NCBI GenBank assembly: GCA_000004695.1
Contig: CM000152.2
Span: 256,001-320,000 of the forward strand
Reading direction: 5' to 3'
Source: Dictyostelium discoideum
Lineage: Eukaryota
Length of the DNA stretch: 64,000 nt
Under the pieces are notes generated by a model, which worked only from the letters and a program-made list of their open reading frames with translations, did no database searches and was not told the origin of the DNA. Both the position numbers and the translations under genes were made by a program. Of the stretch, positions 8,255 through 14,651 are shown one piece after another; within the stretch, counting starts at the first letter, position 1, and each line of letters begins with the position of its first letter.

Positions 8255-11200
8255 ATGAATAAAGATAATAATGGAAATAAAAAAGATAAAGATAAAAATA
8301 AAAATAATAGTACTAATAATAATAATAATAATGAAGATAAACATATGTTCACATATGGAATAAAAGATAATAATAAACATACACAACCAAAACCAAACAA
8401 TTACCAAATTCCATCTCATTTACAAAAGTATTCAAAATTTAAAAATTCATATTATAACACCAATTTTGAAAGTGATAAAAAGAAAGAATCACCCCAACTT
8501 CCATCTAAACAACAACCACCACAACAACAACAACAACAACAACTACAACAACAACCACAACAACAACCACAAGCAACTTTTTCAAAAAATCATATTGATA
8601 AAATCCAAGAAACTTTAAACAATGCAAAATCTAAATCTAAAACAAATAAAAAGCTTGATCACTTTATCCACAAGGATAAACATTTAAAAAATGAAAGTAC
8701 ATTGCAAATTACTGACCCCAAAACAACAACAACCACTACAACCACAACAACTACTACTCCTACCACCACTACCACTACAACTTCCAAAGATAAAGATAAA
8801 GATAAAGATACAGATAAACAACAGCAAAAACAAAGGGAGGAAATAAATGGAAAAGAAGAAGAAAAAGAAGAAAAGGATCAATCAATTTTTATAATAAAAA
8901 AAAATACATTTGAAATACAATTTAATGATAAAAATAATAAAAATAAAAATAATAATAATAATAATAATACAATATTAACAAATGATGAAAATGAAATTAA
9001 ATTAATAAATGAAAAAGATGATGAAATAATTAGAATTAATAAGATTAGAGAAAGACAAAATTCATTTCCATCATTATTTCCACACTATAATAAATTTACA
9101 AACGTTCATGCATCAGTATCATTACATAATCCATTCATAAGGTCAGATCATGGATATAGATTCATTTTATATAGATTCCCACATTTAAAAAATAGTAATA
9201 TTAAATCATATAATTTCTGTAGAAATATTACAATCTCTCATCTTCATTTCGATCCAAAACAATCTATTGATCGTTCATTGAAAAATATTACATTATTTTT
9301 AAAAAGAAATCAATTCTTAGATCCCAATATTGAAAGAATTTGTCATAAAGAAATTTTAAATAGTAATAGACATAGAAAAATTAGATTATCAACACCAATT
9401 AATAATAATAATAATAACACTAATAATAATTTATCAATTGATTTAACATCACCATATTCCTCTTCACTAACTTTTGATAAAAAAAACTCAAAGAAATCTA
9501 AAAAGAAAATATCATTTGAACCTACTCCAACAATTTTAACAACAAGATTAAGAACAAGATTAAATCAACAACAACCACCACCACCGCAACAACAACAAGA
9601 TAAAGGTAATGAAAAAGAAGTACAAGAAGAGGGGGAGGAGGAGGAAGAAATTGAACAATCAGATAGAGATACTGAAACTGATTTTGAAAATTTTAGTGAT
9701 TACTATGATGAAGATGATTATGACGATGGTAGTGAAGATGATTATGATCCAAATAATGATGAAAGTATATTAGATGATGATATATCATCAATGGGTGAAA
9801 TGGAATCTGAATCTGAATCTGAGTCTGAAACTTTTATTAGAATTGATGAAGATGGTAATACATTTTCTGGCAATGGTGCTGGTGCTGGTACTGGTGGTAG
9901 TGGTGGAAATAAAAAAGATAAATCTAATATTAGTAATATCGGATTCAATCATTTAGATAAATCAACTCAATTTAATGAAAGAATGTTTGGTGGTTCAAGA
10001 TTACATTATGAAACATTTGGTAATGATAAATTCATTATACTATCAACTGGTCCAATTATGAATGTTTTATCAATTTATCATTTAAATGATAACAATTCAA
10101 ATTCTTTCCCATTAGAATATAACTATGAATCACATTCATTAGCATATTATAAAGTACCACAAACAATTTTAAATATTTCAATTTCAACAATTTCAACAAG
10201 TATGTTATATAATCATCATCATTATTTTTATTATTTTAAATTTATATTAACCCCAAAGTTATTACTATTTACTATTTGCTATTATTATAGATTTTAAAAT
10301 TATTTATTTAAGAACTAGATATTCAGTTTATTATTTTTCAATAACTTATATTAAGAAAAAGAATGAAAAAAATTATAAAAATAAAAATAATAAAAAAGAA
10401 GTGCATGATAATAATAATAATAATAATAATAATAATAATAATAATAATAATAATAATAATAATAATAATAATAATAATAATAATAATAATAATAATAATA
10501 ATAATAATAAAGTAGATGAACCATCTATAGAAGAAGTTGGTGATAGTGAGGAAGAAGAAGAAGAAGAAGAAGAAGAAGAAGAAGAAGAAGAAGAAGAAGA
10601 AGAAGAAGAAGAAGAAGAAGAAGAAGAAGAAGAAGAAGAAGAAGAAGAAGAAGAAGAAGAAGAAGAAGAAGAAGAAGAAGAAGAAGAAGAAGAAGAAGAA
10701 GAAGATGAAGATGAAGAAGAAAATCAATTAATTCAAATTGAATTATTAAATAATTATACATTTTCAGATAGAATTATGGATGTTTGCGTATCAAAGAAAA
10801 TTATAAATCAATCTTTTGTATTATTGGAGAATTCTTCAATATTTAAATTAAATTTTAATTTAACCCTAATTTCAAAGAGTTTAATTCCAATTGAACCATT
10901 TGAATTCATTCCTCCAATAATTGAAGAGGATGAACAACAAAACCAACAAAAGCAAGGAGAAGAAGGAAAAGAAGGAGAAGGAAAAGGAAAAGAAGAAGAA
11001 GAAGGAGAAAAAGAAGAACAAAATCAAAATGGTAGTAGTGTGGAACAACTATCAAGAAAAAAACAATATAGTCCATACGAATGGATGAGATTTAAATTAA
11101 ATATAGCAGAAACTCAAATTATTTTATCATATTCAAATAAAATCATATTATTTGATTTACAATGTGAAAATATTAAACGTAGAAAATTATTAGAATCAAG

Positions 11201-14200: not shown

Positions 14201-14651
14201 ACAAGAACCACAACTATCACAACAACAACTCCAAAAACTACAACAACTACAACAACAAGAAGAAGAGGATGATGAAGTTGAGGATGAAGGAATATCCATA
14301 CCTCAAGCATCAAGTGAATATAGTTTCTTTTCATCTTTTTCACAAATTGGTGGTGGAATTTCAGGAATGTTTTCTCGTTTTACTGGTAAAAAGCCTGACC
14401 CAATACCTACAGACAATAAATTTAATGAGATTAATTCTGCTTCAACCTCACTACAACAACAACAACAACAACAACAACAACAACAACAACAACAACAACA
14501 ACAACAACAACAACAACAACAACAACAACAACAACAACAACAACAACAACAACAACAAGATAATGAAGAAGAAGAGGAGGAATACCCATCCAATTCTCAA
14601 TCAGATTATAACTTTTCACAACCTCCACCTTCAAATTGTAGAGCACAATAA
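8255..14651 (+). CDS. Giant low-complexity protein (~2100 aa) with polyN, polyE (~50), polyQ (~36), polyT and Gly/Phe (FG, GGSSFGG) repeats; probably nucleoporin-like or other FG-repeat protein. Two exons, 8255-10199 and 10291-14651.
   Basis: ORF 8255-10297 runs into GTATGT at 10200 with phase 1. Past the acceptor (...tattattatag, ends 10290) the sequence continues in frame, A+AT=Asn, straight into ORF 10401-14651. That ORF's 'M' is a GTG codon. FG-like repeats SSFGGSSFGGGFGGSGFGGGG...FGSFFSF lie at ~13790-13940. Confidence 0.55.
10407..10712 (+). repeat. Coding trinucleotide repeats: (AAT)~35 then (GAA)~50, encoding polyN and polyE
   Basis: Perfect repeats are visible at 10407-10511 (aat) and 10551-10712 (gaa, with a few gat at the end). 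In frame in the 8255-14651 gene. Confidence 0.95.
14452..14557 (+). repeat. Coding (CAA)~36 repeat encoding polyQ
   Basis: Perfect caa repeat near the 3' end of the same gene. Confidence 0.95.

Follow-up and report, generated by a model that had tools for sequence, protein, structure and literature searches.

A two-exon Dictyostelium discoideum gene with a dictyostelid-conserved core and lineage-specific, repeat-derived low-complexity blocks

We analyzed a 64,000-nucleotide (nt) stretch of Dictyostelium discoideum DNA (assembly GCA_000004695.1, contig CM000152.2, positions 256,001 to 320,000, forward strand; hereafter the window). The window is very A+T-rich, with coding islands at a Dictyostelium-like ~25%-30% G+C. 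Our subject is the plus-strand interval 8255-14651, which carries two neighboring open reading frames (ORFs) rich in low-complexity sequence: 8255-10297 (+), which encodes 680 amino acids (aa), and 10401-14651 (+), which encodes 1416 aa and is called with a "GTG" start. We assign a probability of about 0.88 to the reading that this interval is one two-exon gene with a 2101-aa product, in which a core of ~900 aa conserved among dictyostelids has been inflated by repeat expansion, and in which a cluster of Phe-Gly (FG) dipeptides is a lineage-specific expansion and not a nucleoporin FG domain. The features of the locus are collected in Table 1, where a slash marks a splice boundary.

Table 1. 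Features of the gene and its product, in window coordinates
Feature	Position	Strand	Description or evidence
Exon 1	8255..10199	+	ATG in aaaaaaATG context; 648 codons + 1 base
polyThr block T12-P-T7	8723..8782	+	Run count
N-terminal block (KIRERQNSFPSLFP...ERICHKEIL)	9041..9358	+	Weak likeness to Synstelium residues 52-135, segment E 0.077
Conserved strand-rich core, first part, intron-interrupted	9974..10352	+	BLASTP E 4e-16
GT-AG spliceosomal intron	10200..10290	+	91 nt, phase 1; donor CAAG/GTATGT, acceptor TTATTATAG/AT
Exon 2	10291..14651	+	Stop codon 14649-14651 included
(AAT)34 array, perfect, encoding N33	10408..10510	+	Run count and DNA repeat analysis
(GAA)57 array, 97% perfect, encoding E52 and acidic tail	10551..10721	+	Same loop as N33
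Conserved strand-rich (propeller-like) core, second part	10722..12014	+	BLASTP E 3e-18; phmmer E 2.9e-13; low-confidence model strands
Motif DTRxxxxPLIxW	11256-11342	+	In second core part
Motif NPYxCxPLxGV...LQxGxxGDxTSTxY	11889-12014	+	In second core part
Three-helix, winged-helix-like module (NLGQAIIQLLEFYGPQTTTELMFHLNGFFLNYEILDYLKYY)	12723..12845	+	
Conserved Trp-rich motif VVRSSFYPEDWKKEWFDGYSDINP	13434..13517	+	Synstelium VKRSHFDPEAWRDEWLLGYREIDP; E 3e-6, 43% identity
Imperfect tandem repeat encoding Gly/Ser/Phe cluster	13798..13925	+	Period 15, ~8.5 copies; also periods 24, 42
(CAA)35 array, perfect, encoding Q35	14453..14558	+	Run count and DNA repeat analysis
C-terminal motif EEYPSNSQSDYNFSQ	14577..14633	+	By-eye likeness, without statistics, to Synstelium C-terminus EEYGRYDLSQ...SQNYDFNTS

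Gene structure across the intron

Removal of positions 10200-10290 leaves a coding sequence of 6306 nt that translates into 2101 aa with zero internal stops. Exon 1 is 1945 nt long and thus ends in phase 1; the donor GTATGT starts at 10200 after CAA/G (the slash here marking the codon boundary), and the acceptor AG occupies 10289-10290, preceded by ...tattattat. Both sites have consensus-like context (GT donor, AG acceptor). The intron is 83.5% A+T, with a G+C fraction of 0.165 compared with 0.251 and 0.266 in the flanking exons. If the intron is retained, frame 2 hits a stop at 10295-10297. The downstream frame is not open until 10251 and lacks an in-frame ATG upstream of 10770, which makes the "GTG start" of the second ORF an artefact of bacterial-style ORF calling. 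When all frame-restoring GT/AG pairs are enumerated, 10200 is the sole consensus-like donor; the in-frame acceptors at 10290, 10326, 10398, and 10401 correspond to proteins of 2101, 2089, 2065, and 2064 aa, respectively.

Homology supports the join. We ran phmmer exhaustively over 1.84 billion cluster representatives, with the globular region of exon 2 as the query, and recovered two proteins only: one of 973 aa from the dictyostelid Synstelium polycarpum (EukProt EP01133_P002254; E = 2.9e-13; P0002 in our set, hereafter the Synstelium ortholog) and a fragment from Dictyostelium dimigraforme. When the fused protein, with its homopolymers trimmed, is aligned to the Synstelium ortholog by BLASTP, a single unbroken segment (E = 4e-16) begins in exon 1 (NHLDKST...ISTISTN), passes through the junction to FKIIYLRTRYSVYYFSI, and extends beyond the polyN/polyE insertion as far as ELLNNYTFSDRIMDVCVSKK, which pairs with Synstelium ELIKKSTFKQEVCDVVISGK. 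This segment takes in the 17 residues encoded directly after the acceptor. At the junction itself, ...TGPIMNVLSIYHL..EYNYESHSLAYYKVPQTILNISISTISTN/FKIIYLRTRYSVYYFSI... is aligned with Synstelium ...TGPNMNVLAVHSL..IDYEHHATAYFSQPQHILSIHSQRFTPNISIIYFRTPYSVFFLYL..., and the first part of the core reads "TGPIMNVL...YESHSLAYY..PQTILNISISTISTN/FKIIYLRTRYSVYYFSI" against "TGPNMNVL...YEHHATAYF..PQHILSIHSQRFTPNISIIYFRTPYSVFFLYL". For the remaining core there are additional collinear segments, at E = 3e-18 and 3e-6. Since the join falls inside the conserved strand-rich domain, neither ORF alone can be a complete protein.

The same gene is present in public data. An exact look-up of the neighboring 6-phosphogluconate dehydrogenase gene led to CM142509.1 (GCA_054883475.1), where a gene call on the minus strand (positions 14347-20743 of the locus we label L002) has a 6397-bp span that is base-identical to window 8255-14651 and a 2101-aa product with no Pfam domain. 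The difference between 6397 and 3 × 2102 (6306) is 91 nt, so the public annotation uses the same intron. Taken together, the BLASTP segment that crosses the junction and the annotation of identical span indicate that the join is more than chance. The sequence-only reading had joined the two ORFs into one gene of ~2100 aa through a 91-nt intron, and this proposal holds in full: The ORF coordinates, the GTATGT at 10200, phase 1, and the A+T-rich 91 nt ending in tattattatag are all as described, the frame is restored at exactly the proposed sites, the ortholog alignment spans the junction, and the public annotation agrees. The fused gene model is correct but already publicly annotated. Neither of the two ORFs as called nor the fused 2101-aa protein had an exact match in the protein collection, and a search of plasmid DNA, which has no bearing on this locus, came back empty.

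Over a wider interval (window 7503-29071), the window and L002 are 99.54% identical: In 21.5 kb there are 12 mismatches, and 15 indels account for a further 87 bases. CM142509.1 thus represents the same species in another strain or assembly.

The conserved core and its relatives

From the N-terminal block onward, the core appears to consist of a strand-rich, probably propeller-like domain, a winged-helix-like three-helix module, a long helix, the Trp-rich motif, and a short C-terminal motif, in that order. An AlphaFold2 run on the Synstelium ortholog with a three-row alignment gave a model with a mean pLDDT (predicted local distance difference test score) of 34.7, in which strands fall into groups of about four at residues 166-531 and helices follow; the strands at residues 218-258 are equivalent to the first part of the core. 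A second model, with sequences of the transcription factor subunit TAF1C added to the alignment (see below), reached a mean pLDDT of 45.7, and there is no closed propeller in either. As modeled, the core would fit a propeller with a helical region after it. The earlier suggestion of a beta-propeller in the globular part therefore survives in part: The AlphaFold models do contain runs of about four strands, but at a pLDDT of 35-46 and with no significant fold match. We infer that the core is a protein- or nucleic acid-binding scaffold, probably nuclear; the most specific candidate identity we can offer, although an unlikely one, is a very divergent TAF1C/Rrn6-like subunit of the RNA polymerase I core factor (see below).

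Database searches place the protein among the orphans. Pfam gave no match for the window protein or the Synstelium ortholog, whether as whole proteins or as isolated domains, and neither single-sequence nor profile queries found a match in PDB sequence searches. A word-indexed homology search with a junction-spanning query returned no match among 8000 candidates, which were filled by low-complexity words, and the same search with the Synstelium ortholog returned that protein itself as its single result. A metagenome scan for relatives produced 75 pattern matches, none of them confirmed. Judged by primary sequence, the protein is an orphan that is conserved within Dictyostelia only.

The D. dimigraforme protein (P0001 in our set) was considered as an orthologous gene and rejected: It is a fragment of ~370 bp from a nonsyntenic locus, interrupted by in-frame stops and changes of frame. 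The fragment lies in JBTAPM010000013.1 (positions 10818-11182 of the locus we label L001), is homologous to fused aa 1169-1349 with ~63% identity, and is annotated as a hypothetical protein of 185 aa (KAN0053070.1), with unrelated neighbors (a G8/CEMIP gene and an FNIP kinase). Its appearance suggests either a piece of a pseudogene or an artefact of assembly or annotation.

Low-complexity blocks and the surrounding genes

The low-complexity blocks of the window protein are derived from DNA repeats and are specific to its lineage. They had been noticed in the sequence-only reading and are present as described there, except that the Asn run counts 33 residues and not 35, and the Gln run 35 and not 36; the Glu run counts 52. 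The Thr, Asn, Glu, and Gln runs and the Gly/Ser/Phe cluster have no counterpart in the 973-aa Synstelium ortholog, which contains three isolated FG dipeptides only. A striking case is the homopolymer insertion within a folded domain: N33 and E52 together (~100 residues, positions 10408-10721) occupy what is a loop of ~12 residues in Synstelium, between two conserved predicted strands. The Gly/Ser/Phe cluster spans fused aa 1819-1865 (positions 13800-13940), and its 47 residues comprise 26 Gly, 10 Phe, 10 Ser, and one Asp. Seven of the 13 FG dipeptides in the 2101 aa lie within this cluster, and the other six are scattered singly.

The D. discoideum proteome contains ~10,000 homopolymer tracts of >10 aa, Asn and Gln tracts being the commonest (PMC13093961; microsatellite review, PMC9234386). 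Given this abundance, the N33, E52, and Q35 tracts are ordinary for the organism. The core has probably been inflated more than twofold as triplet and 15-nt DNA repeats in its loops and linkers expanded by a slippage type of process; the expanded blocks are T12/T7, N33, E52, the Gly/Ser/Phe cluster, and Q35.

Several further ORFs overlap the arrays, either in another frame or on the other strand: 10338-10727 (-), 13735-14088 (+), 13774-14052 (-), 14128-14709 (+), and 14303-14593 (-). Their products are polyPhe/polyIle, polyVal, polyHis, polyCys, and similar runs, and we regard them as shadows of the triplet arrays, not genes.

An upstream ORF at 3686-6139 (-) encodes 817 aa with no Pfam match and is possibly a further orphan gene. 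The ORF at 6493-7392 (-), which resembles a zinc-type alcohol dehydrogenase/enoyl reductase, starts mid-protein, and at ~7660-7760 (-) there is an upstream ATG exon ending AAAG/GTAAGT; the visible exon indicates that this gene also has a short 5′ intron, and the public product is 350 aa. Downstream lies a C2-domain protein kinase at 14787-17200 (-), 333 aa in the public annotation, and only ~135 nt separate the end of that gene from the stop codon of the one studied here.

Alternatives and comparison with known systems

Three points count against the reading favored here, in which one two-exon gene encodes an expanded dictyostelid core. The 110 nt from 10291 to 10400 are only 10% G+C, which is lower even than the intron and unusually low for coding sequence (although residues encoded by the first 50 nt are conserved in the ortholog). 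The gene call in the public assembly is a prediction. Finally, both structural models are of low confidence (pLDDT 34.7 and 45.7), and the term "propeller-like" refers only to the periodicity of the strands.

TAF1C/Rrn6 is the subunit with a beta-propeller and a helical bundle in the promoter-recognition factor of RNA polymerase I (SL1 in mammals, Core Factor in yeast). Rrn6 is described as having its strand-rich domain ahead of a helical region (PMC5599796). The modeled dictyostelid core seems to have the same domain order, and it might be a highly divergent TAF1C/Rrn6 ortholog that acts in the initiation of rDNA transcription; we consider this unlikely, while noting several lines of evidence in its favor. 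We compared 14 mammalian TAF1C sequences with the dictyostelid pair using hhalign. The best two local matches are collinear and are the very motifs first noticed by their likeness to human TAF1C: LLATESHVLMLDTRCMTRPLIDW against LVCTQFSLYLVDERLPLVPMLKW (TAF1C 458-481; E = 0.087), and PLVGV..LLQMGRLGD against PTIGL..LFQLSAAGD (TAF1C 564-594, at the start of Pfam TAF1C_HB; E = 0.23). However, the hhalign probability is only 0.7%, and the pattern DxR....P...W is common among WD-type blades generally. MAFFT placed both hhalign motifs in the same columns in three modes, with three of five motifs in register. The gapped profile alignment scored 103.4, compared with 75.9 ± 10.7 when blocks of 15 columns were permuted (three of 200 permutations reached the observed score) and 60.9 ± 9.4 when columns were shuffled (0 of 200), but the collinearity result varied with the gap settings (z score 0.7-2.9).

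Model confidence behaves in a similarly mixed way. The addition of 35 TAF1C rows raised it only locally, at exactly the motif blocks (overall, from 34.7 to 45.7), but this gain is without a control by an unrelated propeller family. In a calibration, the mammalian TAF1C profile missed yeast Rrn6 in PDB; genuine family members, too, can therefore be expected to go undetected in sequence searches. Against the TAF1C/Rrn6 assignment, the Pfam models TAF1C_beta-prop (PF20641), TAF1C_HB (PF20642), and PF20643 have no match at E ≤ 10 to the isolated domains of the window protein or of the Synstelium ortholog; human TAF1C matches the Pfam TAF1C models at 3.5e-57 and 2.3e-19. With a TAF1C hidden Markov model, the real sequences score no better than 1000 locally shuffled decoys, and the Rrn6 chain 5n5y_P ranks only 24th in Foldseek (E = 1.8). 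We found no human TAF1C chain in PDB and no mention of a Dictyostelium TAF1C or Rrn6 in the literature. If the assignment were true, the core would be the TAF1C/Rrn6 subunit that is missing from the RNA polymerase I core factor of Dictyostelia and that escapes Pfam, and a propeller loop would tolerate a polyAsn/polyGlu insertion of ~100 residues.

The sequence-only reading had raised the idea of an FG-nucleoporin of the Nup214/Nup159 type, in which a beta-propeller anchors the protein at the nuclear pore and FG repeats bind transport receptors. This now appears very improbable. The seven FG dipeptides packed into the 47-aa cluster, the strand-rich domain followed by helices in the models, and the presence of propeller nucleoporins in the nonsignificant Foldseek list (4xmm_E, E = 0.068 and template modeling [TM] score 0.08; Nup120 3h7n, E = 0.81; and chains of 7wb4) all point in its direction. 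FG domains, however, have tens of FG motifs over hundreds of residues, and here the seven are confined to 47 of 2101 residues, are encoded by a 15-nt DNA tandem repeat, and are not present in the Synstelium ortholog. No nucleoporin family was found in the Pfam scans or the PDB sequence searches, and the strand-rich region begins near aa 575 (approximately aa 150 in the ortholog) and not at the N terminus. Every fold match, moreover, has E > 0.05 and a TM score < 0.1 and comes from a low-confidence model.

Least credible of all is that the locus holds two separate genes, or that another in-frame AG acceptor (10326, 10398, or 10401) is used and 10291-10400 is noncoding, as its resemblance to noncoding DNA at 10% G+C could suggest: The downstream frame lacks an ATG before 10770, the Synstelium ortholog is a single polypeptide that spans both halves, none of the three shorter products (2089, 2065, or 2064 aa) has the 2101 aa of the public annotation, and the later acceptors are excluded by the conservation of the residues directly after the 10290 acceptor, since they would lose residues encoded by 10293-10343 (FKIIYLRTRYSVYYFSI), which match ISIIYFRTPYSVFFLYL of the ortholog.

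The preferred reading, a single gene with an expanded core, has little import beyond correct annotation, the model being already public and long homopolymer runs being well known in Dictyostelium. Its interest is for specialists: The orphan might be a very divergent subunit of a general transcription factor, and the gene bears on the extent to which triplet-repeat expansion can inflate a folded domain.

Compared with known systems, the window protein resembles the FG-nucleoporins Nup214 and Nup159 in having a strand-rich domain, helices, and some FG dipeptides near the C terminus, but it carries no signature of the family, and its strand-rich domain is not N-terminal as it is in those proteins. 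The core matches TAF1C/Rrn6 significantly neither in sequence nor by profile, has no Pfam match, and has no established fold; the likeness lies in the apparent domain order, a propeller-like region and then a helical bundle, and in two short collinear motif matches, one where the propeller ends and one where the helical bundle starts. The Synstelium ortholog is less than half as long and has no homopolymer runs and no Gly/Ser/Phe cluster, but the two proteins are collinear throughout the conserved core, with 24%-25% identity in the strand-rich domain (E = 3e-18 and 4e-16), and have in common the N-terminal block, the GPxT helix module, the NSTxY..FSxE block, RSxFxPExWxxEWxxGY, and the C-terminal EEY...SQxYxF. 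The CM142509.1 gene does not differ from the window gene at all, and all of the long triplet arrays are identical in the two.

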